64,000 nt of DNA, from contig JBBECI010000043.1 of NCBI GenBank assembly GCA_040881895.1, positions 9,065 through 73,064 on the forward strand. The letters run 5' to 3'. The stretch is from Solirubrobacterales bacterium. Its GTDB lineage: Bacteria; Actinomycetota; Thermoleophilia; Solirubrobacterales; 70-9. This document shows positions 3,359 to 18,980 of this stretch, one piece after another (positions within the stretch are counted from its first letter, which is position 1; each line of letters opens with the position of its first letter). Position numbers and translations under genes: made by a program. The notes under the pieces were generated by a model that was given only the letters and a program-made list of their open reading frames with translations, was not told where the DNA came from and made no database searches.

Positions 3359-3940
3359 ATGATTCGTGTCGTGAACTACGGCGATCTCGAACTCTCGGAT
3401 CTGCTCCTGACGCATCAGGAGGCAACCGACCTGAAGGCTCACGGAAACCGCGAAGCCGCCGTCCTGCTGCCGATTACTGACTGGTCGCACAAACCCAGGC
3501 TGGTCTTCACCGAACGCCGGGCTGATCTCAACAAGCACGCCGGGGAGATCTCCTTCCCGGGCGGCATGAGTGAATCCGACGACAGAGACCTCGCAGCGAC
3601 CGCCCTCCGCGAGTCCCATGAAGAGGTCAACCTCCACCCGGAACGGGTCGAGATAGTAGGCGCCCTGGCACCAGTGGGAACCTTCGTCACCTCGTACCGA
3701 ATCCAGCCTTTCGTCGGAATCGTCACGGGAGACGAACCACTGATCGCCAACCCTCAGGAGGTCGCATCGATTCTCCACTACGGGATCGATGAGCTGGTTG
3801 ACTCCTACGCGATGCGGAGGCTGGTCCGGCGGGGAGTCCCGATCCGTACCCCCACCTTCAATATGGGTCGTCACACGATCTGGGGTGCCACGGCGCGGAT
3901 CCTGTCGGACTTTTTGATCCGAATCCGCGCTTTCAGCTGA
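3359..3940 (+). CDS. NUDIX hydrolase, CoA pyrophosphatase-like
   Basis: Nudix box in ISFPGGMSESDDRDLAATALRESHEEVNL (G-x5-E-x7-REx2EE-like). The length and context resemble the NudL/CoA pyrophosphatase subgroup. Confidence 0.75.
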   Translation: MIRVVNYGDLELSDLLLTHQEATDLKAHGNREAAVLLPITDWSHKPRLVFTERRADLNKHAGEISFPGGMSESDDRDLAATALRESHEEVNLHPERVEIVGALAPVGTFVTSYRIQPFVGIVTGDEPLIANPQEVASILHYGIDELVDSYAMRRLVRRGVPIRTPTFNMGRHTIWGATARILSDFLIRIRAFS

Positions 3941-3985
3941 CCCGGCTCGGCAATCTTCTGCCGGATTCGCCCCTAAGCTTGTCTG

Positions 3986-4831
3986 ATGGCTGATCCACAG
4001 CTGCTGACGAGCATCGACGGAGTGATCACCCCCTCGACCGAGGCCGTGTTGCCCCTGCCTGATGACGGACTCTTCCGCGGCGACGGCGTCTTTGAGGTGC
4101 TGCGCAGTTACGAGGGTCATGTCTTCGCACTCAGCGAGCATCTCGATCGTATGGAGGCGTCAGCGGCGGTGCTGGATCTCCAGATCGAGCGGGAACAAGT
4201 AGAGGCCGACGCCGCAGCCCTCATCGCCCAACCCGCCGCAGGTGAAGCCCCCGGAGGGGACCAGGATCATGGGAGCCGGATGGTCGGGCCAGACTGCCTC
4301 CTCAGGATTATCGTCACCAGAGCAGGCAGGCGGGTGCTCACACTCGAACCCCTCCCGGTCTACCCGCTTTCGGTTTCGCTCGCGACCGTTTCCTACTCGC
4401 CAAGCGTGATCCTCAACGGAGTCAAGTCACTTTCATATGCGGCGAACATGCAGGCAACCCGGATCGCCAAAGAGTCGGGGGCCGACGAAGCCCTCCTGAT
4501 CACGCCCGAAGACGTTGTGCTGGAGCCTCCCACCTCAACGCTGTTCTGGGTCTCACCCGACGGTCCCCTGCGTACCACCGACACCAGGGCCGGCGTGCTC
4601 GATTCGATCACCAGGCGCAAGGTCATCGAGCGATGCGAGGTCGAGACAGGTCACTTCGGGATCGAAGATGTCATGGCATCGAGCGAGGTCTTCCTGGCTT
4701 CGACCACGCGTGAGATACAGCCTGTCCACGCAATCGACGGCCAGCCGATCCCCACTGTTCCCGCCCCCCGGACCAACGAAGCCGGCACGGCCTTTGCGGA
4801 GGCGGTTGCTGAAGAGTGTGGAGCCGGCTAG
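3986..4831 (+). CDS. Class IV (fold type IV) PLP aminotransferase / aminodeoxychorismate lyase family
   Basis: GDGVFEVLRSY... and LNGVKSLSY (PLP Lys region) with a C-terminal EVFLASTTREIQPV pattern, typical of the BCAT/D-AAT/PabC family. Confidence 0.75.
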   Translation: MADPQLLTSIDGVITPSTEAVLPLPDDGLFRGDGVFEVLRSYEGHVFALSEHLDRMEASAAVLDLQIEREQVEADAAALIAQPAAGEAPGGDQDHGSRMVGPDCLLRIIVTRAGRRVLTLEPLPVYPLSVSLATVSYSPSVILNGVKSLSYAANMQATRIAKESGADEALLITPEDVVLEPPTSTLFWVSPDGPLRTTDTRAGVLDSITRRKVIERCEVETGHFGIEDVMASSEVFLASTTREIQPVHAIDGQPIPTVPAPRTNEAGTAFAEAVAEECGAG

Positions 4832-4855
4832 CCCCCGTCGGCGGTCAGTCGCTAC

Positions 4856-5800
4856 TCAGAACTCGGTGTCACGCAGGTACCACTCAGCGTCCAACGCACC
4901 CTGGCAACCCGAACCTGATGCCGTGATCGCCTGACGATAGGTGTGATCAACCAGATCCCCTGCGGCGAAGACTCCCTTGAGGTTGGTCCTGGTTGACTCT
5001 GCTTCGGTGACGACGTAGCCCTCGTCATCCGTGCTGACCTGGCCGGCCACCACTTCCGACCTCGGGATGTGACCGATCGCAACGAACGCACCGCCTACAG
5101 CGACCTCGCTTGCTTCGCCCGTATCCGAGTTGCGAAGCCTGACCGAAGCCAGTGAGCCATCCTCGCCGGCGATGAACTCCTCGGGCGCGAAAGGGGTCAT
5201 CAGATTGATGTTGGGTGTTGCCTTGGCACGGTCCTGCATGATCGCCGAGGCCCGGAACTCATTGCGACGGTGGACCAGGTCCAGTTCGGTAGAAAATTTC
5301 GACACGAAAATGGCATCTTCCATGGCAGAGTCGCCGCCACCGATGACCATCGTCTTTTTGCCCTTGAAGAACGCCCCGTCGCAGACGCCGCAAGTCGAGA
5401 CGCCACGGCCCATCAGTTCCATCTCGCCCGGAATGCCGAGCCGTCGCGGCTCCGCACCCATGGACAGGATCACCGACCTGGCGAGGTACTCCTCATCGCC
5501 GAGGTAGGCCTTCTGAATACCGCCGTCTCCGAGTTCAACCCGGTCAATGTCGTCACTTACGAAGCGGGTCCCGAAGCGCTCCGCCTGCTCGCGGAAGCGG
5601 GTCATCATCTCCGGACCCATGATGCCCTCTGGAAAGCCGGGGTAGTTTTCAACGTCGGTCGTGTTCTGAAGCTGCCCGCCCCACTGGAAGCCTTCGAAGA
5701 CGAGAGGGTTCAGTTCGGCACGGCTGGCATAAAGGGCAGCGGTGTAACCGGCGGGGCCCCCACCGATGATGATCATGTTCTCAACTTCGCTGCCGCTCAT
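4856..5800 (-). CDS. trxB: Thioredoxin-disulfide reductase
   Basis: IIGGGPAGYTAALYASRA FAD motif, redox-active CGVCDGAFF, second GGGDSAMEDA NADPH motif, C-terminal GVFAAGDL. Confidence 0.9.
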   Translation of the reverse strand: MSGSEVENMIIIGGGPAGYTAALYASRAELNPLVFEGFQWGGQLQNTTDVENYPGFPEGIMGPEMMTRFREQAERFGTRFVSDDIDRVELGDGGIQKAYLGDEEYLARSVILSMGAEPRRLGIPGEMELMGRGVSTCGVCDGAFFKGKKTMVIGGGDSAMEDAIFVSKFSTELDLVHRRNEFRASAIMQDRAKATPNINLMTPFAPEEFIAGEDGSLASVRLRNSDTGEASEVAVGGAFVAIGHIPRSEVVAGQVSTDDEGYVVTEAESTRTNLKGVFAAGDLVDHTYRQAITASGSGCQGALDAEWYLRDTEF

Positions 5801-5913
5801 ATTGTTCTTTCCTTGCTTTCTCCGCTACCGGATGTGTCTTCCTGAAGTTCCATTACTTTACTTTATGAAGTCTAACTTCCCGGCCACCCAGGACGCCCTG
5901 ACGGGTTGAAGCC

Positions 5914-7092
5914 TCACGCCTTGTGTCTGCTCAGGGATCTCTGCGGTGGGCGGTCAATTGGAAGTCCCTCGGTCTTCCAGCGCTTTACCGTCCCGCGTAG
6001 CTGGAAGAAGGCGACTACTCCCGGTGGGATCGGCAGCCAGAAGGCAACAAGACGGTAGATCAGGATCGCGGCAAACACCTCTGCGTCCGGAAAACCGAAA
6101 AGTACGAAGGTCCCGATCATGCCCGCGTCCACGGCTCCTACTCCGGCCGGCACGAAGGGGATCAGGTTCGCAGCCATGCCGATGAAGAACCCCATCACCA
6201 CGACCCCGAATGGCACCGCTATCCCGAGTGCTTTGAATGACGCCCAGAGGATCCCGATATTGGCGGCCCAGAAGCCAACCGCACCCAGAACTGCCAGTCC
6301 TGCCCGGGTTGGATGTGCGAGCAGTTTCAAGGCCACCCTCACTCCTTCGGCAACGGTGGCCGGCACCTTCGCAAGCCGCGCCAGGTACTTTGCCGAGGGG
6401 CGACGGTCCGAATACGCCTGGATCCGTCGTTCGATATCGGCTGGCACCAGGGCGACCGCCAGGCCGACGACCATCACGATTCCAGCGATCGCCGCGGGAA
6501 CTATGGTCAGCGATACGACTGTACTGCCGCTGAGGACCCCGGTTCTCAGAAGGACTCCGAAAACGACGATCGCCAGTGGATAGAAGAGGTAATGAAGCAC
6601 GATGAAGGCGACCATGCGGGTTCCGACATCGCGCCTCTCCATCCCTCCCTGACGCAAGGCCCAGTAGGTCAGAACCACTCCGCCTGCACCACCGGCTGAG
6701 AAGAGCAGCGTCGCAGCGAAGCCCGCCATATTGATCTCGTAGGCCTCACGCCAGGTGATCGGAAAGACATCCCCTCCCACAACCGCTCGAAAAAGGGCGA
6801 TGTAGGTGATGAAGGAAGCGATGCCGAACCCGATGGCGACAGCCACCCAGATCGGAGTTGCCTCTCCGAGGGTCCCGGCCGCGTCTCCGACTCCCACCAG
6901 TTTCGGTATGAAGAAGTAGATGCCGACGATCAGGACGGTTATGAGCAGCAGTGTCTGGACCGCGCCCCGGACCGTAAAGGTCGGAAGGCCATCGTCGACC
7001 TCGACCGCAGGCTGACCAGCCTCTGCTTCCTCCACAGTCAAATGATCAGGTTGCGGCACAGAGACCACCTCACGAAGTCGCGATCGCTTCAA
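5914..7092 (-). CDS. Flippase-like / lysylphosphatidylglycerol-synthase TM-region family membrane protein (UPF0104-like)
   Basis: 392 aa and polytopic, with about 8 hydrophobic segments. The pattern resembles the TIGR00374/UPF0104 family. Assignment is by general resemblance only. Confidence 0.55.
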   Translation of the reverse strand: MKRSRLREVVSVPQPDHLTVEEAEAGQPAVEVDDGLPTFTVRGAVQTLLLITVLIVGIYFFIPKLVGVGDAAGTLGEATPIWVAVAIGFGIASFITYIALFRAVVGGDVFPITWREAYEINMAGFAATLLFSAGGAGGVVLTYWALRQGGMERRDVGTRMVAFIVLHYLFYPLAIVVFGVLLRTGVLSGSTVVSLTIVPAAIAGIVMVVGLAVALVPADIERRIQAYSDRRPSAKYLARLAKVPATVAEGVRVALKLLAHPTRAGLAVLGAVGFWAANIGILWASFKALGIAVPFGVVVMGFFIGMAANLIPFVPAGVGAVDAGMIGTFVLFGFPDAEVFAAILIYRLVAFWLPIPPGVVAFFQLRGTVKRWKTEGLPIDRPPQRSLSRHKA

Positions 7093-8029
7093 ACCGCTGC
7101 AGGCTTGAGTTGATCTGACCGACGATCGGGCGGGCGAGGGGCTCTCCCTTGCGGACCAGCAGGACGACGGCAGCGCCGGCCAGAAGGTCCGTCACGTAAT
7201 GCTCGCCCAGATAGACAAGCGAGAAACCGAGCGCCCCGGCATAGAGCCAGCCCAGCGCGCCCTGAATCCGGCCACCGTTGTCGCTGAGAAGAATCGCAGC
7301 CATCAGGGCTGTGGCGAAATGGAGTGAGGGCATGGCAGCCCAGGGATTGCTCCCAAGGGTGCCGAATATCCGCGTCCATGCCGGACCCCAGGTCCGCTCG
7401 CCGAACTGAACCATCACCCGATCGATCTGTTCGTCACCCGTATGTCCGTTTTCGGCGGCCCACCACGGTGGGGCTGTTGGCACCACGAAATAGAAGAGAC
7501 ATCCGATATCGAAGACAGCAGCCATCTGCCTTGCCGAGTGCGGGAAGGCTTCGCTCCGACGAAGCAGTATCCAAAGCAGCGCCGAGTTTGGCTGCACAAA
7601 CCAGATCCAGTGGGACCAGGCGGCAAAGGTTGTCAGGAAGTCGCCTCGAAATCCTTTCTGAAGGGAGCGCTGGAGCATGGAACCAGGAAGCCTGCCTCGA
7701 CCGATCCAGCGATCTGCCTTGATCGGATAGTCGATCCTGAGACGCCGACGCAGGCGCTCAGGATTGTCGTAGGGAAGTTCGTGGGTAACCGCGAAGGCCC
7801 ACATCTGCGCGCCGAACAGGGCGAGGTCCCGTGCCTTGGTCCTGGGCCAGAGAACCGCGATCGCGGCTGGCGCCGCCACAGTCGAGGCCACCGTCACCGA
7901 TGTCGGCAGGCGAAGCTGCCGACGCACATGCGGCACGACGACCGCAGCCGCCAGCGCAGCGAACCCGGCGACCCGCAGGGCAGATCGCTTCCGGTCCCGT
8001 GCCGCGCTGGAGGGGGTCCGCCATCTCAT
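7070..8029 (-). CDS. PAP2 superfamily phosphatase / phosphotransferase-like membrane protein
   Basis: C-terminal PSLHFATALMAA and GEHYVTDLLAG match PAP2 motifs C2/C3 (SxH, SRxxxxxHxxxD-like). Overlaps the downstream membrane protein gene by 23 nt. Confidence 0.6.
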   Translation of the reverse strand: MRWRTPSSAARDRKRSALRVAGFAALAAAVVVPHVRRQLRLPTSVTVASTVAAPAAIAVLWPRTKARDLALFGAQMWAFAVTHELPYDNPERLRRRLRIDYPIKADRWIGRGRLPGSMLQRSLQKGFRGDFLTTFAAWSHWIWFVQPNSALLWILLRRSEAFPHSARQMAAVFDIGCLFYFVVPTAPPWWAAENGHTGDEQIDRVMVQFGERTWGPAWTRIFGTLGSNPWAAMPSLHFATALMAAILLSDNGGRIQGALGWLYAGALGFSLVYLGEHYVTDLLAGAAVVLLVRKGEPLARPIVGQINSSLQRFEAIATS

Positions 8030-8117
8030 TGCCGTATGGAGACTAAGCCAACAACGCTGACCGTTGACGATGACCCGGCGTCGCCTGTCCGGCTCATCCG
8101 ATTAGAATGGCCGAGTT

Positions 8118-8951
8118 GTGCTGTCCCGTTCCGGAAAAATCCTGCCCCTCGCTTTGACGATCGCCTCAGCAGCGACCGCGATGGCGGCCTTCGCCTCACC
8201 GGCTTCGGCCTTTTCGCTGAACCCGGATGCCGCATCGCCGGGCATCGAAAAAATCAACACTTTCCACTGGATCATTTTCGTCGTGACCGTGATCGCGATC
8301 GTGATCGTGAACCTCGCAATTCTGCGTGCCGCGAAACCGCGACACCGGCATGTCCAGAGCGAAAGCACCGGCGGCGGACGCCAGATGCGCGTCGGCTTTG
8401 GCCTCGGTGTGGTGGCCCTCGCTCTCTTCGTCACGGCAACTGTTTTTTCAAGTCAGGCCCGGGAAGTGCCGGTGGGTAGCAGCGAAGTCGCGGGGCTGAA
8501 CGCGGATGACCAGCTCGAGATCCGAGTCACCGGACAGCAATGGCTCTGGCGCTACGACTATCCCAACACAGCCTTTTCCTACCATCGACTCGTGGTACCG
8601 GTCGATACCACTGTTGCTCTGAATCTGGTCTCGGCTGATGTAATCCACGGCTGGAACGTGCCTGCCCTCACCGGCAAAGCACAGGCTGTGCCGGGCAAAA
8701 CCAACAGCCTTTACTTCAGGGCCGACCGGGAAGGGGTCTTTACCGGACAGGCCTCCGTCCTTTCCGGACAGGGCTACGACACCATGCAGTCTGAGGTAGC
8801 AGTCGTTTCTCTGGCCAAGTACGAAGCCTTCGTGCAACGCCTCAGGGCGGCCATTCAGGAGGCCCAGGACTCTGTGGTCGCCACGCAGCAAAAGGAACTC
8901 CGCGAAGCCGCTGAGGAGACGCCCACAGGAGAGGTTGAACCCCAGCCATGA
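8118..8951 (+). CDS. Heme-copper oxidase subunit II-like protein lacking the CuA Cys/His ligands
   Basis: Signal/TM N-terminus plus a cupredoxin-like C-terminal domain (LWRYDYP, DVIHGWNVP). Canonical CtaC in this window has CTELCGAGHSTM; this protein has ASVLSGQGYDTM (nt 8751-8786). Confidence 0.75.
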   Translation: MLSRSGKILPLALTIASAATAMAAFASPASAFSLNPDAASPGIEKINTFHWIIFVVTVIAIVIVNLAILRAAKPRHRHVQSESTGGGRQMRVGFGLGVVALALFVTATVFSSQAREVPVGSSEVAGLNADDQLEIRVTGQQWLWRYDYPNTAFSYHRLVVPVDTTVALNLVSADVIHGWNVPALTGKAQAVPGKTNSLYFRADREGVFTGQASVLSGQGYDTMQSEVAVVSLAKYEAFVQRLRAAIQEAQDSVVATQQKELREAAEETPTGEVEPQP

Positions 8952-10642
8952 GCAGTTTTCCGACGGTCATGCCACCCACCCGCCCGGAAGTCACCACGGG
9001 GGATTCTCCAGACCGCCCTGGCTGGGCGCGGCTCGCGACGAGCCCCGATCACAAGGTCATTTCCCTGATCCTGATCTCGGCTGCTTTCGGCTCGGTCTTT
9101 CTGGCTGCCCTGGAACTTCTCCTGGTGCGCCTGCAGCTCGTCGTCCCGGAGAATGTCTTCCTCAGCGCCGTTACCTTCGACCGGCTGCTCTCGGTCTACG
9201 GGGCCACCGCAATATTCCTGTTCATCCTGCCGCTCTGCATCGGCTTGCTCTACTACGTGACACCACTGCAGATAGGAAGTCGCGGAACTGCGCTGCCGAG
9301 ACTGGGGCAGACCGGGCTCTGGCTGTTCATCCTCGGAGGTTTCCTTCTCTACGCCTCCTTCCTCTTCACTCCGCCCGAAGCTGGCATCAACCCCCTCCCC
9401 CCGCTTTCGCAGCACATCTTCACACCGAATAACGGGGTCGACGTCTGGATCGCATCGACCAGCCTCGTCACACTCGGCATCCTCCTGCTCGTCATCGACC
9501 TGCTTGTGACAGTGAGGAACATGAGGGCCCCCGGCATGGCCTGGCGCAGAGCGCCGATCTTCGTCTGGACCGCCACGATCGTCTGCTGGCAGATCGTGAT
9601 CATCGCCCCGATTTTTCTCGCCGCACTGACCATGCTGATGGTTGACCGTCAGCTCGACGGCGGTTTCTTCACCGGTGGCGTGGGCGGAGCACCACTGCTC
9701 TGGCAGCACCTCAGCTACATCTTCTTCACCGGTGCCTACATGGCCGTGGCGGTGACCATGCTAGGTGCGATTTCCGAGATCGTTCAGACTTTCACCCGCC
9801 GCCAGCTGCCCGGCCGGAGAGCGATTATCGGCTCCCTGGCTGCGATCGCGCTAATCGGTACCCTGGCCTGGACCCAGAACATGATGACCGCCCCGATTCC
9901 CGGCGGCGTCAAGTACTACGCGATGCTCCTTTCGATCTCCCTGATCGTGCCCTTCGGGCTGATCTTCTACAACCTGATCTCAGCGGTTGCCAGCAGCGAC
10001 TTCCACATGCGGGCGCCGCTGCGATTCGCCATGGGCGCGCTTTCTCTGGGCTCTGTCGGCCTGGCCGCAGAGGTGAGCCAATCGACTGTCGCGCTCGGCT
10101 CCCAGCTCCAGCAGACCTACGATGCCTGGGCTGCGACTCACTTCGCCCTGATCGGCTTCGGACTCTTCGGAGGCTTTGCTGCTGTCTCGTACTGGTACCC
10201 GAAGATGACCGGCCGGATGCTTGACGAAGACCGCGCGAGGATCTCCTTCTGGGTGATGTTCGCAGGCACCCTGATCGCTCTGGTGCCGCTGTTTGGTGCC
10301 GGGGTGGAGGGTCAGGTCACTGACTCCTTCCGGTTCTTCGCCGATGAAAACGTCAGCCTGTTCAACCTCATCGCGACGTTCGGCACCCTCATCCTGTTTG
10401 TCGGCATCGTGCTCGCCGTCGGCAACCTCGTCCGCAGCCACTCTGAAGGCGCCACCTCGACACCCGACCCATGGCGCGGCAGCTCTCTCGAGTGGTTGGC
10501 GCTATCGCCACCCGAGCCGCATAACTTTGACGTACTGCCGGATGTGCGAAGCGTTCAGCCGATGCAGGACATCCGCGAGTCCCTCGTTCGGCGCGAAGCC
10601 GAGCAAGAGGCTCCGGCTGGCGAACACCAGCCGGTAGCCTGA
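8948..10642 (+). CDS. Heme-copper oxidase subunit I-like protein with 5 of 6 canonical His ligands substituted
   Basis: 564 aa and collinear with the CtaD of this window (DHKVI, MRAPGM, YPKMTGRM, SSLEWLALSPPEPHNF). The ligand columns read Y84, T261, Q310-N311 and A/T-H398. ATGA overlap with the subunit II-like gene. Confidence 0.8.
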   Translation: MSSFPTVMPPTRPEVTTGDSPDRPGWARLATSPDHKVISLILISAAFGSVFLAALELLLVRLQLVVPENVFLSAVTFDRLLSVYGATAIFLFILPLCIGLLYYVTPLQIGSRGTALPRLGQTGLWLFILGGFLLYASFLFTPPEAGINPLPPLSQHIFTPNNGVDVWIASTSLVTLGILLLVIDLLVTVRNMRAPGMAWRRAPIFVWTATIVCWQIVIIAPIFLAALTMLMVDRQLDGGFFTGGVGGAPLLWQHLSYIFFTGAYMAVAVTMLGAISEIVQTFTRRQLPGRRAIIGSLAAIALIGTLAWTQNMMTAPIPGGVKYYAMLLSISLIVPFGLIFYNLISAVASSDFHMRAPLRFAMGALSLGSVGLAAEVSQSTVALGSQLQQTYDAWAATHFALIGFGLFGGFAAVSYWYPKMTGRMLDEDRARISFWVMFAGTLIALVPLFGAGVEGQVTDSFRFFADENVSLFNLIATFGTLILFVGIVLAVGNLVRSHSEGATSTPDPWRGSSLEWLALSPPEPHNFDVLPDVRSVQPMQDIRESLVRREAEQEAPAGEHQPVA

Positions 10643-10646
10643 ACGA

Positions 10647-11582
10647 ATGATCGACGGACTCGAAGTGCGCGAAGCGCATGTTCGTTCTGCCGAAAACGTT
10701 CAACCGACCCCTCTTCGAGACGTGCTTTCAGTAGCTCGCGACTACATCACCCTCACCAAGCCCCGGATCATCAGCCTGCTGCTGCTGACCACGGTTACGA
10801 CGATGTTTGTCGCCGATCCGGCAGGGCCGGCCCTCGCGACGATCCTCTGGACCATGCTCGGCGGGTATCTGGCAGCAGGAGGGGCCGGGGCGATCAACCA
10901 CTTCGTCGACCGCAAGCGCGATGCCCGTATGGCCAGAACCAGTTCTCGGCCTTTGGTCAATGGCCGGATATCCCCGATTCACGGCCTCATCTTCGGGATC
11001 GTGCTTGGAGTGGCGGCGTTTATCCAGCTCTGGCTGACCGTCAACTTTCTGGCCGCGGGGCTGGCGATGGTCGGACTTCTCGGTTACGTATTCCTGTACA
11101 CGCTCTGGCTCAAGCCAATCACGCCGCTGAACATCGTGATCGGCGGCAGCGCGGGGGCAGTGCCGCCGCTGGTCGGGTGGGCAGCGGCAACGGGTAGCCT
11201 GACGCCGGAATCGGCGTGGCCGTTTCTGATCATCTTCTTCTGGACGCCACCCCACTTCTGGGCGCTCTCTCTGATGATCAAGGAGGACTACGAGCGAACC
11301 GGAGTCCCGATGCTCCCGGTCGTCAAGGGCGACGCAGAAACCCGCCGGCAGATCCTCATCTACACGATCGTAATGTTCCTGTTCACCCTGGGGCCGTTCT
11401 TCACTGGACTACTGGGAACGCTCTACCTTGCCTGCGCTCTGGTGCTGGGCGGCATCTTCATCTGGCTATCGCTGGCCCTGTATCGCGATCCCAGCCCGGC
11501 GCGCAACCTTCGGACCTATCTCTACTCGCTCGCCTACCTTGCCCTGCTTTTCGTGGCGATGGCTGTCGACGCCGTCGCCTGA
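10647..11582 (+). CDS. ctaB: Protoheme IX farnesyltransferase (heme O synthase)
   Basis: UbiA-family motifs: GGAGAINHFVDRKRDARMARTSSRP and the polytopic profile typical of CtaB/CyoE. Begins 4 nt after the preceding stop. Confidence 0.9.
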   Translation: MIDGLEVREAHVRSAENVQPTPLRDVLSVARDYITLTKPRIISLLLLTTVTTMFVADPAGPALATILWTMLGGYLAAGGAGAINHFVDRKRDARMARTSSRPLVNGRISPIHGLIFGIVLGVAAFIQLWLTVNFLAAGLAMVGLLGYVFLYTLWLKPITPLNIVIGGSAGAVPPLVGWAAATGSLTPESAWPFLIIFFWTPPHFWALSLMIKEDYERTGVPMLPVVKGDAETRRQILIYTIVMFLFTLGPFFTGLLGTLYLACALVLGGIFIWLSLALYRDPSPARNLRTYLYSLAYLALLFVAMAVDAVA

Positions 11583-12035: not shown

Positions 12036-12434
12036 TCAGGGTGGTCCGCTTGAAGTCGCTCCATCGGTGGTCCACGCGCGCATGATGTCGCGCATCGAAA
12101 GTATGCCGACGAGCTCCCCGTCTTCGTAGATCATGAGATGCCGGATACTCCGGCGCGACATCTCCATGGCTGCCCGTTCCATGCTCCACTCGGGTGAGGC
12201 CGTAATGACGCTTTCACTCATGTGATCGCCAACCTTCTCGGAATCCGGGTCCAGGCCTGTACCGAGAGCCTTCAGGATGTCGCGCTCAGTGATGATCCTC
12301 AGCACCGGAAACTCGTCATCCTCAACGACCGCAGCGCCCACCCCTTGACCCACCATTCGAGAGGCAGCTTCGCGCAGAGTGTGGCCCGGCCCGACCCTGA
12401 GGACGACTTCCGACATTCCTACACTGACTCGCAT
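12036..12434 (-). CDS. CBS domain-containing protein
   Basis: 132 aa. Two CBS-like repeats (ITERDILKAL, ILSMRDIMRAW). Confidence 0.75.
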   Translation of the reverse strand: MRVSVGMSEVVLRVGPGHTLREAASRMVGQGVGAAVVEDDEFPVLRIITERDILKALGTGLDPDSEKVGDHMSESVITASPEWSMERAAMEMSRRSIRHLMIYEDGELVGILSMRDIMRAWTTDGATSSGPP

Positions 12435-12542: not shown

Positions 12543-13256
12543 ATGACCCGCCTTCGCCCCACCTCAAAATCCCTCGTATTACTCGTTTCCTTCGGTATTC
12601 TCACCGGCCTCGTCGCAGGCTGTGGAGCTGAAACGTCTGCACCGATCTCAGGCGGCTTCCAGGATCGAGGCAGGCAGCTGTTCAATGCCAAGTGCGGAAC
12701 CTGCCATGTCATGGCTCAGGCGGCCAGCCAGGGAATTCAGGGGCCCAACCTCGACACCGCCTTCGCCGCAGCGCGCGCTGCCGGCTTGACAGAAGACACT
12801 GTCAAGGGAGTCGTCGAGTACCAGATCAAGCACCCTCGTCCCTCCCTTGATGGCTACCCGGGTGTTAGCATGCCGGCCGACATCGTCACTGGAAACGACC
12901 TTCAGGATGTCGCCAGGTATGTCGCCCGCTACGCCGGCGTACCCGGTGCCGGACCACCGGTGGCACCAGGCGAAGGTCCGGGGGCACAGGTCTACGCAAA
13001 CCAGGGCTGCGGTAGCTGTCACATACTCGCCGCGGCGGAATCAGCCGGTGTCCTCGGTCCGAATCTCAACAAGGTGATTCCGGGAATGACACGGGCAATG
13101 ATCGAACAGGCAATCGTGGAACCCGACGCCAGCAAATCCCCCGGATATGAAAACGCCGTTATGCCCAACCGCTGGTCAAACCTGCCTTCTCAGGAACTCG
13201 AGCAGCTGATCGATTTCCTTCTCGCTTCGACCAGTGGCGGAAAAAACGGCGGCTGA
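12543..13256 (+). CDS. Diheme c-type cytochrome, predicted lipoprotein
   Basis: Lipobox LVAGC after a signal peptide. Two CxxCH motifs (CGTCH, CGSCH), each followed by a candidate Met ligand (VSMPAD, AVMPN). Confidence 0.85.
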   Translation: MTRLRPTSKSLVLLVSFGILTGLVAGCGAETSAPISGGFQDRGRQLFNAKCGTCHVMAQAASQGIQGPNLDTAFAAARAAGLTEDTVKGVVEYQIKHPRPSLDGYPGVSMPADIVTGNDLQDVARYVARYAGVPGAGPPVAPGEGPGAQVYANQGCGSCHILAAAESAGVLGPNLNKVIPGMTRAMIEQAIVEPDASKSPGYENAVMPNRWSNLPSQELEQLIDFLLASTSGGKNGG

Positions 13257-13317: not shown

Positions 13318-14259
13318 TTGCTGAAGCGCATCGAGATATCGCCGGAGCGCTACGCGCAGGTCACCCTCATCGCACTTGTTGCGCTAGTACTGATCGTCTT
13401 CACCGGTTCTGCCGTTCGGCTTACCGCATCTGGCCTTGGCTGCCCGGACTGGCCGAAGTGCTACGGCGGTTATGTAGCGCCCGCCCAGATCAACGCCTGG
13501 ATCGAATACGGAAATCGGCTTCTGACCGGTCTCGTCGGGCTTGCAGTAATCGCCGCCTCACTGCTCGCGTTCTTCCGCAGGCCCTATCGCTGGCACCTTG
13601 CCCTCTTCGGTGCGCTGCTCCCACTGGGAGTAATCGGCCAGGCCATTCTCGGTGCGTTTGTGGTCGAGTACCATCTGCCGCCGGAACTGGTGATCGGTCA
13701 CTTCCTGCTTTCGATGGTGCTCCTTGATGCTGCGTTTGCGCTTTTCTGGTGTTCGCGCTACGAACCGGGAGAGCGCGCCTTCTCGGGCGACTTCTTTGGG
13801 GTCTGGGCTGTCCGGGCCCTGATCCCGCTTGGTCAGATGACCGTACTGCTGGGGACCATAACCACGGCCTCCGGCCCACATCCAGGCGACCATGACAAGG
13901 AACTCGTCCATCGCTTCAACTTCAGAGGTGAAGAGACGCTCGAATGGATAGCCCAACGTCATGCTGCCATGGCCGTGCTCTTTGCCGTGGCAGTTCTGGT
14001 TGTGATCCTGATACTGATGCGCAAGGGCGGTGACCGCCGGGCCCTCCTCCCCCTGGGCGCAACCCTTGGCCTCATCCTCTTCCAGATCACTCTGGGAATC
14101 ACTCAGTGGCTCCTCGAACTGCCGGCTGTGCTGGTCTGGTTCCATGTGGTCACTGCGACTCTGATCTGGCTCGCAGTGCTCTGGTCGGTTGCGACAGCCG
14201 GGCAACTCAAGGGCCGGGATGTAACCAGATCTGCGGCAGAGGCAAAGCAGAGCAGCTAG
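13318..14259 (+). CDS. ctaA: Heme A synthase (COX15/CtaA family)
   Basis: GLGCPDWPKCYG motif, eight hydrophobic segments, and conserved His in the TM helices (EYHLP, HVVTATLIW). Confidence 0.85.
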   Translation: MLKRIEISPERYAQVTLIALVALVLIVFTGSAVRLTASGLGCPDWPKCYGGYVAPAQINAWIEYGNRLLTGLVGLAVIAASLLAFFRRPYRWHLALFGALLPLGVIGQAILGAFVVEYHLPPELVIGHFLLSMVLLDAAFALFWCSRYEPGERAFSGDFFGVWAVRALIPLGQMTVLLGTITTASGPHPGDHDKELVHRFNFRGEETLEWIAQRHAAMAVLFAVAVLVVILILMRKGGDRRALLPLGATLGLILFQITLGITQWLLELPAVLVWFHVVTATLIWLAVLWSVATAGQLKGRDVTRSAAEAKQSS

Positions 14260-14678: not shown

Positions 14679-15305
14679 TCAAATGATGTAGATCGTGACG
14701 AACACGACGATCCACATAATGTCGACGAAGTGCCAGTAAATCCCCGGGACTTCGACACCCAGGTGATTTTTTTGCTCAGGCCCGAAGTGGCCTCGCCAGG
14801 CACGGATATTGGCGAAGGTGAGAAGGAGCAGGCCGATGAACACATGAGCGCCGTGAAGACCAGTGAGGCTGAAGAAAATCGTGCCAAAGGCCCCGTCACG
14901 AGGGGTGAAGCCGATGTGGACGTATTCGTTGATCTGGATGAAGAGGAAGGCAGCTCCCAGCAGCCAGGTCAGACCGAGGCCCAGCTTGAGGCCGCGGTGG
15001 TTGTTGTGCTTGATCGCCTCGAGGGCGTAATGAATGGTGAAGCTTGATGAAACCAGAACAACCGTGTTGATTCCGGCGATCAGAACCGGGAGTTCAATTC
15101 CCGTCGGCGGCCAGGTGTTGGGTGAAACCACAACCCGGAGAAAGAAGTAGGCGGCGAAGAAGGCCGCGAAAAGCATGATCTCCGAGAGGATGAACAGAAG
15201 GATCCCAAGAACCGTCTGGTCAATCCGCGCGCTGCGATGAAACTCTGGGGGGCCGTGATGTTCAGCGGCGGCTCCGTGGCCGACTGCGATGCTTGCGCTT
15301 TCCAT
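14679..15305 (-). CDS. ctaE: Cytochrome c oxidase subunit III
   Basis: FILSEIMLFAAFFAAYF, LTGLHGAHVFIG and YWHFVDIMWIVVF are classic subunit III motifs. Confidence 0.9.
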   Translation of the reverse strand: MESASIAVGHGAAAEHHGPPEFHRSARIDQTVLGILLFILSEIMLFAAFFAAYFFLRVVVSPNTWPPTGIELPVLIAGINTVVLVSSSFTIHYALEAIKHNNHRGLKLGLGLTWLLGAAFLFIQINEYVHIGFTPRDGAFGTIFFSLTGLHGAHVFIGLLLLTFANIRAWRGHFGPEQKNHLGVEVPGIYWHFVDIMWIVVFVTIYII

Positions 15306-15310
15306 TTTCC

Positions 15311-16219
15311 CTAAACCTCGCTGGCTTCCGCGTTGGAGTGTTCGACTTCCAGACTGTCATTATTGACTGTCGCACCCTCGGCGACCGCTGAAGCGACAGC
15401 ATTCGGGCTGGCTCCAGACTCGTGGTGGGCGACCGGCTTGTCAGTTATCTCGCGAACTTTGCCGACGAGGTCATCAGCCAGCCACCGCGACTGCTCGCCG
15501 GGCAGAGTTGAGATCAGGATGTCGTCCACCTGATAGTGCGCAATCGCATTCCTGACGGAAGAGAACGGATCCGGACTCATTGGCTGACCGGTCGCATCGA
15601 TGTCTGCCCGGTAGAGCCGCGCCATGAGGCTGGCGAGGTTGCGGGTGAGCGAACCGGACGAGATTCCTTCGGTTTCGGGCGCAATGATCGTAAAACGGTG
15701 GGGCCTTTCAGCAGCGCTCTCAATCAGGCGCCTTCCCAGTTCGGGGTCGGCGAGTGTCTGATTGGCCACCACGAGGGTGTGGGTCAGATCCTGCCTGATC
15801 GAGTCCTCTTCAATCCGGACCGGGATGTGCGTGATCTTGGTTTCCGGCTCGAACTCATGCCGTGCCCACTCAACCAGATCCTTCCGGGTGAATCCGAAAC
15901 GGGTGTCGTAAAGGCAGGACATCAGGACTTCACTCGGCCGGTGACTACGAACTGCGTCACCGAGAGCCAGATCGGAATCAGGGTCCATGACTTCCCCGAC
16001 CGCGTTGACTCCGAACTCCTCAAGCACTCCCAGCGTCACTTCGACTCTGCTTTTTGCTGCCGCACGAGCCTCCTTGGGCAAAATCAGCTGACCCGCAACA
16101 GGCTGGTTTTGAGGGGCAACCACGACAACATACGAAGCGTCTTCGGCCCTCTCCAGCGTCGCGGCGAGCAGCTTGCGACCGCCAGCGACCTCGTTGAGGA
16201 AGATCAGCAGCGGCTTCAA
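15311..16219 (-). CDS. Hypothetical protein with two tandem USP-like (adenine-nucleotide alpha-hydrolase-like) repeats
   Basis: 302 aa with an internal duplication. LLIFLNEVAGGRKLLAATLERAEDASYVVVVAP ... EVLMSCLY parallels TLVVANQTLADPELGRRLIESAAERPHRFTIIAP ... DILISTLP. The TTG start overlaps the ctaD stop (TTGA). Confidence 0.6.
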   Translation of the reverse strand: MKPLLIFLNEVAGGRKLLAATLERAEDASYVVVVAPQNQPVAGQLILPKEARAAAKSRVEVTLGVLEEFGVNAVGEVMDPDSDLALGDAVRSHRPSEVLMSCLYDTRFGFTRKDLVEWARHEFEPETKITHIPVRIEEDSIRQDLTHTLVVANQTLADPELGRRLIESAAERPHRFTIIAPETEGISSGSLTRNLASLMARLYRADIDATGQPMSPDPFSSVRNAIAHYQVDDILISTLPGEQSRWLADDLVGKVREITDKPVAHHESGASPNAVASAVAEGATVNNDSLEVEHSNAEASEV

Positions 16220-18126
16220 GCCGGCTCAGCTACCCTCGAGGGCTTCGGGGCTGGCAGCTCGGGTTCGTCTTCTCCACCCATGATTACGTGGCGCGCACCC
16301 GGGGTACCGTACTCATACGGACCACCGACAACCCTGGGGATTTCGTCGAAATTGAATATCGGTGGCGGCGAGCTGACCTGCCACTCGATGGAGTTGGCCC
16401 TCCAGGGGTTGTCGCCAGCCTTCGGACCGAATCGCCAGCTTACGATCATGTTGTAGATGAACACTAGCTGGACGAACCCGAGGATGAAGGCAAAGACGCT
16501 GATCATAAGGTTCCAGTCCCCGTAGATGTTGGCGTAGTCGGCAACCCGGCGCGGCATGCCGTCCAAGCCGATCCAGTGCTGCGGGATGAAGGTTCCCCAG
16601 GTACCCACCATCGTGCCCCAGAAGTGGACGCGCCCCAGTTTTTCGTCGTACATGCGACCGGTCATCTTCGGGAACCAGTGGTAGATGCCGGCGAAGATCG
16701 TGAATACCGACCCCCCGAAAAGCACAAAGTGGATGTGCGCGACGATGAAGTAGGTGTCGGAGACATGGATGTCAATTGGCACCATGCCCAGCATCACGCC
16801 ACTGATCCCGCCCACCGTGAAGGTCACAATAAATCCGAGCGAGAAAAGCATCGCGGTCGAATAGGTATTGATCTTGCCGTAGAAAAGAGTTCCCAGCCAG
16901 GAGAAAACCTTGATTCCGGTGGGCACCGCTATCAGCAGGGTCGTGATCATGATCGGAACCCGAAGCCAGTCAAACATGCCGGCTACGAACATATGGTGGG
17001 CCCAGACCGAGTAGCTTAGAACCACGATCCCGATAAGGGCGAGGGCCATAAGCCGGTATCCAAACACCGGTTTCCTGGAGTGTGTGGAGATGATCTCCGA
17101 CACGATTCCAAAGCCAGGCAAGATCATGATGTAGACGGCTGGATGCGAGTAAAACCAGAAAATGTGCTGGTAAGAGAGGACGTCACCTCCCTCCAGAAAC
17201 TGGAAGAAGTTCATTCCGAGTACGCGGTCAAACAGAACCATGAACTGGGCTCCGGCCACGAACGGGGTGGCTCCGACGACCAGCAGCGAGGTGGCGAGGT
17301 TGGCCCAGACCAGAAGCGGCATCCGCCACAGATTCATTCCGGGTGCACGCATGGTGATGATCGTGACCAGGAAGTTGAGTGCGGTTGCAATAGACGAGGC
17401 TCCGGCGAACTGGACCCCGATATTGAAGAAGGATTGCCCCAGGGGAGCTCCAGTTGAAAGCGGTGCGTAGCCCGTCCAGCCTGCGTCGAATGCGCCTCCG
17501 GGAGCCAGGAAGCTGCTGAGAAAGATGACTCCGGCAATCGGAAGCATCCAGAAACTGAGGGCGTTCAGGCGTGGGAACGCCATGTCGGGAGCGCCGATCA
17601 TCAGCGGCAGCACATAGTTGGCTATGCCGGCGAACATCGGAATGATGAACAGGAAGATCATCACCACAGCGTGAGTTGAGAAGAGGCCGTTGTAAACGTT
17701 CGGATCCACGACTTGGGTGCCGGGCTGGGCCAGCTCGGCCCGGATAAGCAGCGCGAGAACACCGCCGATCAGGAAGAACCCCATGGTCGTGACGATGTAC
17801 TGAATCCCGATTACTTTGTGGTCGGTATTGAACTTGAAGTAATCCTGCCAGCGAGTCGCGCCGTGACCGGAGTGGTCGTCAGGAACGGTCGGCTTCCCTG
17901 CCGCCCAGCGGAACCAGTAGTCAAAAGCGCCAAAGCCAAAAAGGAAGCCAAAAGGAGTTGTGATCAGCGGAACTACGACATGCGGGTATCCGGTCTGTTC
18001 GGTCTGGAAGACGTCAAGTCCTGAGATCGCCCGCAGGACCACAACGAGACCAAATCCGAACGCGGCACCGAGCAGCGCGCCAAGCGCGCCCCGATACCAG
18101 CCTGGTTGTCTTAGTGCCGCTGCCAT
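16216..18126 (-). CDS. ctaD: Cytochrome c oxidase subunit I (aa3-type), with about 65-aa N-terminal extension
   Basis: All six canonical His are present (FSTHAVVMIF, FWFYSHPAVYIMILPGFG, VWAHHMF, VAHIHFVLFGG). 636 aa. Confidence 0.95.
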   Translation of the reverse strand: MAAALRQPGWYRGALGALLGAAFGFGLVVVLRAISGLDVFQTEQTGYPHVVVPLITTPFGFLFGFGAFDYWFRWAAGKPTVPDDHSGHGATRWQDYFKFNTDHKVIGIQYIVTTMGFFLIGGVLALLIRAELAQPGTQVVDPNVYNGLFSTHAVVMIFLFIIPMFAGIANYVLPLMIGAPDMAFPRLNALSFWMLPIAGVIFLSSFLAPGGAFDAGWTGYAPLSTGAPLGQSFFNIGVQFAGASSIATALNFLVTIITMRAPGMNLWRMPLLVWANLATSLLVVGATPFVAGAQFMVLFDRVLGMNFFQFLEGGDVLSYQHIFWFYSHPAVYIMILPGFGIVSEIISTHSRKPVFGYRLMALALIGIVVLSYSVWAHHMFVAGMFDWLRVPIMITTLLIAVPTGIKVFSWLGTLFYGKINTYSTAMLFSLGFIVTFTVGGISGVMLGMVPIDIHVSDTYFIVAHIHFVLFGGSVFTIFAGIYHWFPKMTGRMYDEKLGRVHFWGTMVGTWGTFIPQHWIGLDGMPRRVADYANIYGDWNLMISVFAFILGFVQLVFIYNMIVSWRFGPKAGDNPWRANSIEWQVSSPPPIFNFDEIPRVVGGPYEYGTPGARHVIMGGEDEPELPAPKPSRVAEPA

Positions 18127-18140
18127 CTAACTGACCTCCA

Positions 18141-18980
18141 TCATGACTGATCCACGTTGTCAGCCGACGTTTCGTCGACGCCGCTGCCGTCGATTCCCCG
18201 TTCGGCTTCCTGAATCTGTCGCTGGATTTCAAGGGCCTGATCAGCGGTGAGCAGAAGTGTTTCCGGAACCTCGGATTCGAGTCCTGCGACCCAACTCTCA
18301 AACTGTTTTTGGGTCTGAACAACGACCAGCGCTCGCATCGTCGAGTGGCCAGCGCCACACAACTCAGTGCAGATCAGCTGGTAGGTGCCGACCTTGTCCG
18401 GCGTGATCAGTGCATCGGTCGTTATCCCGGGAACGTTGTCCTGCTTGATACGCCACTCGGGCACCCAGAAGGAATGGATCACATCCTGGGCATTCAGTTT
18501 GAACTCGATCTGCCGATTGACTGGCACATGCAGCACACCTTCAGACCACTTGTTGCCGTTCTCCGGATAGCCAAAGGTCCAGGCGAACTGCTGGGAGTAA
18601 ACATTGACCGCCAGCGAGTTGGGATCCTTCTTCTCAATCTCGTTGAGGACCACCCAGCTGTATCCGGCGGCGAAAAGGACAATGATCGTCGGAATCAGAG
18701 TCCAGATGATTTCAAGCTTGGTGTTTCCGTGGATCGGCAGACCGTCGCTCTCGTCGCCAGGCTTCACCCTGAACTTGACCAGCGCGTAGCCAAGCGCAAC
18801 GCAGACGATGGCGAAAACGAAGGAGGAGAGGATGATCATCACATCCATCAGCGTGTCGATTGGTCCGGCAGCCGTTGAGGCAGCGTCACCCATCCAGTCG
18901 TACTGCATCATCAGGATGGAGACGATGGTTCCGACGGCAAATGAGGCGAGGGCGAGCTTCAAGTAGGGCAGGCGTTCCAT
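18141..18980 (-). CDS. ctaC: Cytochrome c oxidase subunit II with intact CuA site
   Basis: Two N-terminal TM helices, DVIHSFWVPEW, and the CTELCGAGHSTM CuA motif. Confidence 0.95.
   Translation of the reverse strand: MERLPYLKLALASFAVGTIVSILMMQYDWMGDAASTAAGPIDTLMDVMIILSSFVFAIVCVALGYALVKFRVKPGDESDGLPIHGNTKLEIIWTLIPTIIVLFAAGYSWVVLNEIEKKDPNSLAVNVYSQQFAWTFGYPENGNKWSEGVLHVPVNRQIEFKLNAQDVIHSFWVPEWRIKQDNVPGITTDALITPDKVGTYQLICTELCGAGHSTMRALVVVQTQKQFESWVAGLESEVPETLLLTADQALEIQRQIQEAERGIDGSGVDETSADNVDQS

Follow-up and report, generated by a model that had tools for sequence, protein, structure and literature searches.

Can the core of a respiratory oxidase lose nearly all the residues that bind its cofactors and still be maintained by selection, and if so, for what role? 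The question is raised by two overlapping genes, here called COX2L and COX1L, in a 64,000-nucleotide stretch of a Solirubrobacterales genome (assembly GCA_040881895.1, contig JBBECI010000043.1, positions 9,065 to 73,064), referred to throughout as the window. Their products resemble subunits II and I of heme-copper oxidases (HCOs):

8118–8951, + strand: COX2L, a subunit II-like protein with a signal peptide, two transmembrane helices and a cupredoxin domain, its CuA site destroyed
8948–10642, + strand: COX1L, a subunit I-like protein of 12 transmembrane helices, without the heme a3, CuB, proton-channel and propionate-binding residues

The known function of the pair is, as far as its residues tell, lost, and selection on it is retained: hundreds of uncultured actinobacteria from soil carry the pair under purifying selection. 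It is best classed as an A-family HCO core turned pseudoenzyme, for which the new functional class proposed in a first-pass annotation of this DNA may reasonably be inferred.

COX2L (277 residues, GTG start) and COX1L (564 residues, ATG start) are joined by an ATGA overlap at 8948–8951, and their G+C contents at third codon positions (GC3), 0.70 and 0.80, compare with 0.70–0.77 in neighbouring genes. The reading-frame coordinates, the overlap and all motif strings and codon positions of the first-pass annotation were correct, as was its description of the GC3 as normal. COX1L matched the Pfam COX1 profile (PF00115) with 252.8 bits (cut-off 34.8) over model positions 3–436 of 436, the ctaD product encoded in the same window reaching 504.8 bits, and COX2L passed the threshold of Pfam COX2 with 70 bits. 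Both proteins fell below the equivalog cut-offs, COX1L scoring 342 against 670.75 for TIGR02891 (CtaD_CoxA) and 295.7 against 880 for NF050116, and COX2L 135.3 against 147.7 for TIGR02866 (CoxB); the window's own ctaD scored 658 on TIGR02891 (cut-off 670.75). Quinol-oxidase equivalogs all failed (CyoB 278 against 1020, QoxB 298 against 1015, CyoA 53 against 266).

An AlphaFold2 model of COX1L, built from 40 orthologs, comprises 12 transmembrane helices, with a predicted template-modelling (TM) score of 0.82 and a mean predicted local distance difference test score of 75. Patches of low confidence at residues 309–316, 388–395 and 457–465 coincide with the former CuB, Mg and propionate regions. 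By Foldseek, the model aligned with a TM score of 0.84 to 9gy6_F and 7q21_D, the mycobacterial and corynebacterial CtaD, and COX1L is about 30% identical to solved CtaD structures. Its cytoplasmic C-terminal tail, HNFxxLPxxRSxxP, is of the actinobacterial type and is absent from the window's own ctaD.

To read the ligand columns of COX1L, we used a phmmer alignment to the actinobacterial CtaD structures 7q21_D and 6adq_F, with which a MAFFT alignment agreed, and a set of 117 full-length COX1L orthologs (subfamily 1; 59–91% identity) recovered when 5.8 billion proteins were searched. Of the six His ligands of subunit I, five are gone and only His398, in the helix X heme a column, is retained. 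The affected sites are:

9197–9199, + strand: Tyr84 (codon TAC), in the helix II heme a His column; Tyr in 117/117 subfamily 1 orthologs
9728–9742, + strand: Thr261–Met265 (TGAYM), replacing H-P-x-V-Y and holding the first CuB His column and the cross-link Tyr column
9875–9880, + strand: Gln310–Asn311 (CAGAAC), in the CuB His-His columns; Q-N in 117/117
10133–10141, + strand: Ala396-Thr397-His398, with Ala396 in the heme a3 His column and His398 encoded by CAC at 10139–10141

Met265, in the cross-link Tyr column, is Met in 106/117 orthologs; Ala396 recurs in 115/117 and His398 in 114/117, and position 261 is Thr, Ser or Ala. Since the same substitutions recur throughout the 117 full-length orthologs, they are not due to chance. 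The Pfam hidden Markov model (HMM) and the structure-anchored alignments restored no His to these columns, in line with the first-pass annotation. Its further statement that only His398 remains of the helix X pair holds for this COX1L but not for the wider group, in which His398 is missing from 62/237 orthologs.

The losses extend beyond the axial ligands. In the D-channel, Asp and Asn are both replaced by Gly, and neither the Glu nor the YS motif is present; in the K-channel, Thr is replaced by Phe and Lys by Ile. The heme-propionate Arg-Arg pair is deleted, the Mg-site Asp is gone, and Asp459, at least 99% conserved, lies at the site of the canonical propionate-binding Arg. Around the former heme a, the Trp and Tyr columns that hold the propionate read Ile147 and Leu150, and the Met found four residues past the helix II His is Ala88. 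Leu372 and Glu375 take the place of the helix IX glycines, which canonical COX1 conserves at 90% or more. The features of an HCO nitric oxide reductase are missing as well: the heme a3 His is Ala396, there is no CuB/FeB His and the propionate Arg pair is deleted. The pair is not of the CyoAB type either, in agreement with the first-pass annotation; the CyoB and QoxB scores lie far below cut-off and the six His are absent.

The CuA site of COX2L has been lost in an equally regular manner:

8751–8786, + strand: former CuA loop, reading ASVLSGQGYDTM in place of the canonical CTELCGAGHSTM

Its ligand columns read H-A-V-S-Y-M against the canonical H-C-E-C-H-M, in which the Glu contributes its backbone carbonyl. 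In an alignment to Rhodobacter sphaeroides subunit II (1m56_B), the residues of COX2L opposite the two CuA Cys are Ala and Ser, and Tyr stands opposite the second His. Among 77 COX2L orthologs, the first His is present in 77/77, the first Cys is replaced by Ala or Ser, the second Cys by Ser and the second His by Tyr (77/77 each for the latter two), and the Met is retained in 76/77; both Cys are thus lost in all 77. The early report that the loop has lost CuA is therefore confirmed by both the orthologs and the 1m56_B alignment. The H-[A/S]-x-S-Y-M pattern is common to the P0122 and P0124 lineages, whose COX1L proteins are only 32–44% identical, and the P0133 subunit II keeps H-S-x-S-Y, with Glu replacing Met. 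At the level of sequence, then, the pair is predicted to be unable to bind heme a3, CuB or CuA, with both proton pathways gone. With these sites and pathways lost, neither reduction of O2 or NO nor proton pumping would be expected, and the loss of catalysis is near certain.

The orthologs of COX1L are intact. Nearly all of the 117 come from uncultured Solirubrobacterales or Thermoleophilia, and homolog searches for cultured hosts returned only metagenome-assembled genome (MAG) or metagenome sources. For context and integrity, we retrieved 80 species-level genome loci, of which 78 carry a full-length, single-frame COX1L; one copy is ended by a contig edge and one, in locus L080, is frameshifted. 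By the Nei–Gojobori method, the ratio of nonsynonymous to synonymous substitution rates (dN/dS) was 0.055–0.26 for COX1L, 0.10–0.27 for COX2L, 0.05–0.17 for ctaB, 0.04–0.19 for ctaA and 0.028 for the active ctaD. Measured against locus L001, dN was 0.051 and 0.085 for the pair and 0.022 for the active ctaD, a two- to fourfold difference; the pair evolves faster than the working oxidase yet is clearly constrained. With 78/80 loci intact, dN/dS at 0.055–0.27 and no decay among the orthologs, the first-pass view that these are not pseudogenes is borne out, and COX1L/COX2L is very probably a conserved non-catalytic protein.

Two irregular cases deserve separate mention. In L080 (7593–9666), both COX2L and COX1L carry frameshifts; because the locus comes from a single long-read MAG, these are likely assembly indels, although genuine decay in that one lineage is possible. 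An L080 COX1L–ctaB fusion was set aside as only apparent, given the frameshifts in both genes. P0368, an 875-residue COX2L–COX1L fusion, was likewise rejected as Rosetta-stone evidence: its Gly/Arg-rich linker contains no transmembrane helix, so that the topology is implausible, and a one-base indel at the ATGA overlap, which is probably what occurred, would create the same fusion.

What, then, does selection preserve? Of the 564 columns of COX1L, 150 reach at least 98% conservation, and a comparison of two subfamilies that share only 44% identity leaves 99 positions conserved at 95% or more. The second subfamily (P0122-like, 120 sequences) occupies the same operon and differs from the first at the former ligand positions. 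Its helix II position is Tyr in 81 sequences and Phe in 39; at the helix X position, 62 sequences have His, 46 have Phe and 10 have Tyr; Asp or Thr occupies the heme a3 column (A396); E375 is Lys in 40/120, D392 is Phe or Val, and N311 is 69% conserved. Taken over all 237 orthologs, positions 84 and 398 combine as Y/H in 175, F/F in 35, Y/F in 11, Y/Y in 8 and F/H in 1, counts that are uncorrected for phylogeny. The joint replacement of Tyr84 and His398 by Phe/Phe shows that they are dispensable as heme ligands; the co-variation fits two side chains that would touch in a collapsed heme a pocket.

A broader comparison points the same way. Across 20 representatives of ctaB-linked degenerate clades, only 28 positions are common with canonical COX1: a Pro/Gly/Trp/Arg scaffold, the MRAPGM loop, the W-x-P-K-x-x-G cytoplasmic loop and the C-terminal L-E-W...P-P...F. 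In the same representatives, 21 positions related to the cofactors, each conserved at 90% or more in canonical enzymes, have been lost, with no common replacement residue. Selection thus appears to preserve the fold and its interfaces, and not a new shared active site.

The pair does not stand alone, as it is followed immediately by the gene for heme O synthase and by a small reading frame:

10647–11582, + strand: ctaB, heme O synthase (NF003349, 360.4 bits, cut-off 246), starting 4 nucleotides past the COX1L stop codon
11715–12017, + strand: small two-transmembrane reading frame that closes the operon, conserved in ligand-less and canonical versions of the operon

The COX1L–ctaB junction reads TGA-acga-ATG. 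The distance from the COX1L stop to the ctaB start is 4–7 nucleotides in 59 of 64 resolvable loci, and no terminator-like site was found between the two genes. COX1L and COX2L are predicted to share one transcript with ctaB and are almost certainly coupled to it translationally, the spacing being typical of such coupling. The small reading frame encodes a conserved E-x-I-x-L-P-x-x-S-x-x-P motif and has weak profile matches to COX3 helices I–II (E about 0.1) and, in 4/14 members, to CtaF (actinobacterial subunit IV, PF12270).

Further conserved neighbours flank this operon on either side:

4856–5800, − strand: TrxR-like protein, divergent conserved neighbour
5914–7092, − strand: LPG-synthase-TM protein (PF03706), divergent conserved neighbour
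7070–8029, − strand: PAP2_3 protein, divergent conserved neighbour
12036–12434, − strand: CBS-pair protein, conserved neighbour
12543–13256, + strand: di-heme cytochrome c
13318–14259, + strand: ctaA, heme A synthase (Pfam COX15-CtaA, 90.6 bits)
14679–18980, − strand: operon of the active oxidase, with ctaC (18141–18980), ctaD (16216–18126), a reading frame at 15311–16219 and ctaE (14679–15305)

Gene order is near-invariant over the 80 loci, running from the TrxR-like, LPG-synthase-TM and PAP2_3 genes on the minus strand through COX2L, COX1L, ctaB and the small reading frame on the plus strand; the CBS gene (−), the di-heme cytochrome c gene and ctaA (+), and then ctaE, the uncharacterised reading frame, ctaD and ctaC (−) follow. 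The three divergent genes stay directly upstream even where COX1 is only 35–40% identical, canonical lineages included. Surf1, CtaG and Sco were not found among 10 reading frames scanned at about 15.3–31.2 kb of the window, which comprise housekeeping genes, one glycosyltransferase and two genes without a Pfam match.

The active ctaD is of A2 type, with all ligands in place, the helix VI sequence FWFYSHPAVY, a Tyr-Ser motif and no equivalent of Glu286. COX1L is only 30% identical to it. The first-pass designation of COX2L and COX1L as a paralog pair consequently stands in so far as they form a collinear pair of oxidase fold, but they are not a duplicate of the window's aa3 oxidase. We propose that this A2-type enzyme, a few kilobases away, carries out catalysis for the lineage. 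Its ctaD product has 636 residues, including an N-terminal extension of about 100 residues with two extra hydrophobic segments. The reading frame at 15311–16219 (− strand, 302 residues) lies between ctaD and ctaE, overlaps the ctaD stop codon and has no Pfam match; it recurs with 61–85% identity at the same position in nearly all related loci, as an uncharacterised member of the active operon.

The nearest canonical relatives of COX1L are instead A1-type CtaD proteins from Solirubrobacteraceae and Thermoleophilaceae MAGs (P0444 and P0499), in which the six His, the Arg-Arg pair, Lys, Asp and Glu are all present; P0444 is 37% identical to COX1L. These canonical enzymes occupy the same slot, with the order TrxR, LPG-synthase-TM, PAP2_3, one or two inserted genes, COX2, COX1, (CtaA), UbiA and a homologous small reading frame, the same 4-nucleotide COX1-to-UbiA gap, and a subunit II with a full CuA site. 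By position, the pair is orthologous to the canonical A1-type ctaC-ctaD-ctaB operon of sister families. Because slot and ctaB gap are the same as in the canonical operon, the ligands were lost in place.

Intermediate and more degenerate states occur in the shared context. In P0125, the subunit I of locus L084 (pattern HHLLRYG), four of six His are lost, as are the Arg-Arg pair and the channel residues Lys and Asp. L084 itself (3378–8406) has the order COX2-COX1-ctaA-ctaB-small reading frame and a subunit II with an intact CuA site (HCECHM). Other states are SHLTTHQ in P0133, LTFLNSW in P0124 and FSVQSTF in P0122. In canonical-type loci no second oxidase was found within 8 kb, and ligand-less loci have the A2-type cluster 3–8 kb downstream in every contig reaching that far, a distribution that fits functional replacement.

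Degenerate COX1 homologs are not confined to this operon. In an exhaustive HMMER search of 1.84 billion representatives, many homologs with incomplete ligand sets were found among canonical ones, and in a distance tree from which the ligand columns were excluded they fell into a few clades. Public annotation names them 'cytochrome c oxidase subunit I' or 'cbb3-type ...'. The nine other degenerate representatives examined in clades A–C all adjoin a heme O synthase equivalog gene, or lie one gene off via ctaA, in the orders COX2-COX1-ctaB, COX2-COX1-ctaA-ctaB and, in Acidimicrobiales, ctaA / ctaB-COX1-COX3-cupredoxin-redoxin.

The last of these orders defines a sister clade of Acidimicrobiales type (L085 5035–9904, L089 965–5787 and L092 97–3249), with ctaA on the minus strand followed by ctaB, the degenerate COX1, COX3, a cupredoxin-like protein of about 330 residues and a redoxin. 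The ligand patterns here, HTWNEAH, HTWAEAH and HRFEGNH, retain both heme a His and have lost the binuclear site. The degenerate cluster lies directly upstream of a complete caa3-type oxidase in L085 and L089, and the L092 contig ends before that point. L090 (998–4549) and L091 (5324–8909) hold trios of COX2, degenerate COX1 and ctaB in unrelated surroundings with no other respiratory gene near; their COX1 patterns are NQGRHQG and HQVQHWN. A tenth representative, from another clade (L093, 1–8537; pattern HQFWLQH), follows a COX2–cytochrome c fusion directly downstream of an Alternative Complex III (ACIII) cluster (Fer4, NrfD, ActD, cytochrome c), and not ctaB; it keeps both heme a His, the CuB and heme a3 ligands being lost.

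As the best explanation of these observations as a whole, we tentatively favour a cofactor-free scaffold, degenerated in place, in partnership with CtaB and CtaA. COX2L and COX1L would descend from an A1-type aa3 core (CtaC/CtaD) whose redox cofactors were lost in place, and the dead pair would still be produced as a folded, two-subunit membrane complex, co-transcribed with ctaB. Purifying selection would keep it because of a structural, non-catalytic role already played by the ancestral oxidase, namely that of scaffold or partner for CtaB and, via CtaB, for CtaA, stabilising or organising heme O and heme A synthesis. That machinery would then hand its hemes to the active oxidase, and the dependence of CtaB on the pair may have been acquired when the pair was a working oxidase made alongside it. 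The partnership is favoured because ctaB is the sole neighbour kept by every such degenerate clade, whatever the gene order. The specific role as scaffold or partner of CtaB and CtaA, suggested by gene linkage, is possible, if short of probable. That a cofactor-free pair was recruited to heme O and heme A synthesis and delivery, as the first oxidase-derived pseudoenzyme and one member of a widespread, uncatalogued degenerate COX1 branch, we consider conceivable with more doubt than confidence.

Several points weigh against the proposed partnership. The ctaB adjacency was inherited from a working operon and is therefore not independent evidence of a present association. There is no precedent for a stable complex, since in Paracoccus a stable association of heme A synthase (CtaA) with subunit I could not be confirmed (PMC5249081). 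A mirror-tree analysis of COX1L against its neighbours was set aside, as only 16 loci passed the filters and the positive control, COX1L–COX2L, gave a partial r of only 0.14. The pocket collapse is deduced from sequence, and the invariant polar residues Q310, N311, E375 and D392, together with the H-S-S-Y-M of COX2L, could constitute a new site specific to the subfamily.

The bcc-aa3 supercomplex of Actinobacteria includes the A1-type aa3 oxidase as an integral component, and the pair might have been kept as a structural subunit of that assembly, needed for the assembly or stability of complex III or the supercomplex after the A2-type takeover. The top structural and sequence matches, the CtaD proteins of the Corynebacterium and Mycobacterium supercomplexes, would agree with this, as would the C-terminal tail that COX1L has and the window's ctaD does not, and the fold, loop and interface-type nature of the conserved positions. 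However, no qcr genes occur in the window or in the 17-kb loci, the docking partner site at CuA is destroyed, and the ctaB adjacency in three degenerate clades of differing gene order, lone trios included, is left unexplained, all of which makes a supercomplex subunit unlikely. A new activity, with the polar residues that replace the ligands forming a site for another metal, an ion path or a small molecule, is distinctly unlikely. Its candidate residues (Y84, T261, Q310, N311, T314, E375, D392 and H398 in COX1L, His-Ser-Ser-Tyr-Met in COX2L) are 97–100% conserved in the 117-member subfamily, the H-[A/S]-x-S-Y-M pattern of COX2L spans lineages only 32–44% identical in COX1L, and a ligand change has altered chemistry in other HCO families, such as gNOR and NOD. 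Yet E375, D392, A396 and N311 drift in the sister subfamily of the same operon, the degenerate clades have no common replacement residue, and every known path of proton or electron entry is gone.

Two further readings take the pair as a heme binder or as no functional protein at all. Ligation of heme by His and Tyr is typical of hemophores and heme shuttles, and both potential axial ligands are present in subfamily 1 (Tyr84 in 117/117, His398 in 114/117), in an operon shared with heme O synthase; a carrier could thus use Tyr84 and His398 to bind one heme O or heme A where heme a once sat, and so buffer or pass on the product of CtaB. The His is nevertheless missing in 62/237 orthologs, mostly through the joint Phe/Phe swap in the same operon, P0122 and P0124 have neither ligand, and the propionate anchors are lost (Ile147, Leu150, the deleted Arg-Arg pair with invariant Asp459 adjacent, and Ala88). 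Because of the Phe/Phe co-variation and the ligand-free orthologs, we have downgraded this heme-chaperone reading and consider it quite improbable. Decaying pseudogenes, or reading frames kept open solely so that ribosomes reach ctaB, are scarcely credible. The two- to fourfold faster evolution relative to the active ctaD and the frameshifts in both genes of L080 are what such a view would draw on, but dN/dS of 0.06–0.27 is not near 1, COX1L is intact in 78/80 loci, the 99 positions remain at least 95% conserved across subfamilies of 44% identity, and the predicted fold is confident; selection for frame-keeping alone would not constrain amino acids.

Among known systems, the A1-type CtaC/CtaD enzymes (7Q21, 6ADQ, 9GY6; P0444, P0499) share with the pair their fold, two subunits, overlapping genes and C-terminal tail, and the canonical positional orthologs P0444 and P0499 also share the syntenic slot and the ctaB coupling. 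From these the pair differs in having lost all ligands but one, the proton channels, the Arg-Arg pair and the CuA Cys, and in scoring half the equivalog cut-off. The bo3 and aa3-600 quinol oxidases (cyoABCDE, qoxABCD) resemble the pair in a subunit II without CuA, and the cyo operon in including a heme O synthase gene, cyoE (see also PMC9145763), but they are active enzymes, with all six His of subunit I, the proton channels and the cross-link Tyr in place. The gNOR, eNOR, sNOR, nNOR and NOD-like qNOR relatives likewise combine the COX1 fold with an altered ligand set and are often misannotated as oxidases. In those B- or C-family proteins, proposed to be enzymes, at most one active-site His is changed and both hemes are kept, whereas COX1L, an A-family protein, is left with one of six His and without the propionate anchors. 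gNOR was described as the first HCO family with even one active-site His replaced (Murali et al., bioRxiv 10.1101/2021.10.15.464467).

Surf1/Shy1 and the CtaA/Cox15–Cox1 intermediates belong to the same CtaB/CtaA pathway in which the pair is proposed to act and to whose genes the pair is linked; Surf1, however, is related to the pair in neither sequence nor fold. The other degenerate COX1 homologs have the same COX1 fold, incomplete ligands and, except for the ACIII-linked type, a place beside heme O synthase, but differ from COX1L in gene order and partners (COX3, cupredoxin-like, redoxin) and, in the Acidimicrobiales type (HTWNEAH, HTWAEAH), in retaining both heme a His. We found no precedent in the literature for a COX1-fold protein as an assembly factor, and a review of oxidase assembly lists no COX1-like factor (PMC9145763). 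A ligand-less COX1 or a ctaB-coupled COX1-like gene was not found described in the full-text literature covered, which leaves out most subscription journals. The HCO classifier discards sequences without the six conserved His, whose presence is its inclusion criterion (PMC3084760).

The heme-copper superfamily is customarily defined by its six invariant subunit I His, and the large family described here lacks five of them. Purifying selection persists over divergence down to about 35% identity despite the loss of the residues required for catalysis. With canonical, intermediate and fully degenerate versions in one slot, the locus provides a rare natural series from respiratory enzyme to pseudoenzyme. 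Because these genes are annotated in MAGs as cytochrome c oxidase subunit I, counts of terminal oxidases are inflated in metabolic reconstructions of the abundant soil Thermoleophilia. How subunit I receives its heme O and heme A after synthesis by CtaB and CtaA has been termed 'unresolved' (PMC5249081), and the coupling of the pair to heme O synthase may offer a handle on it.

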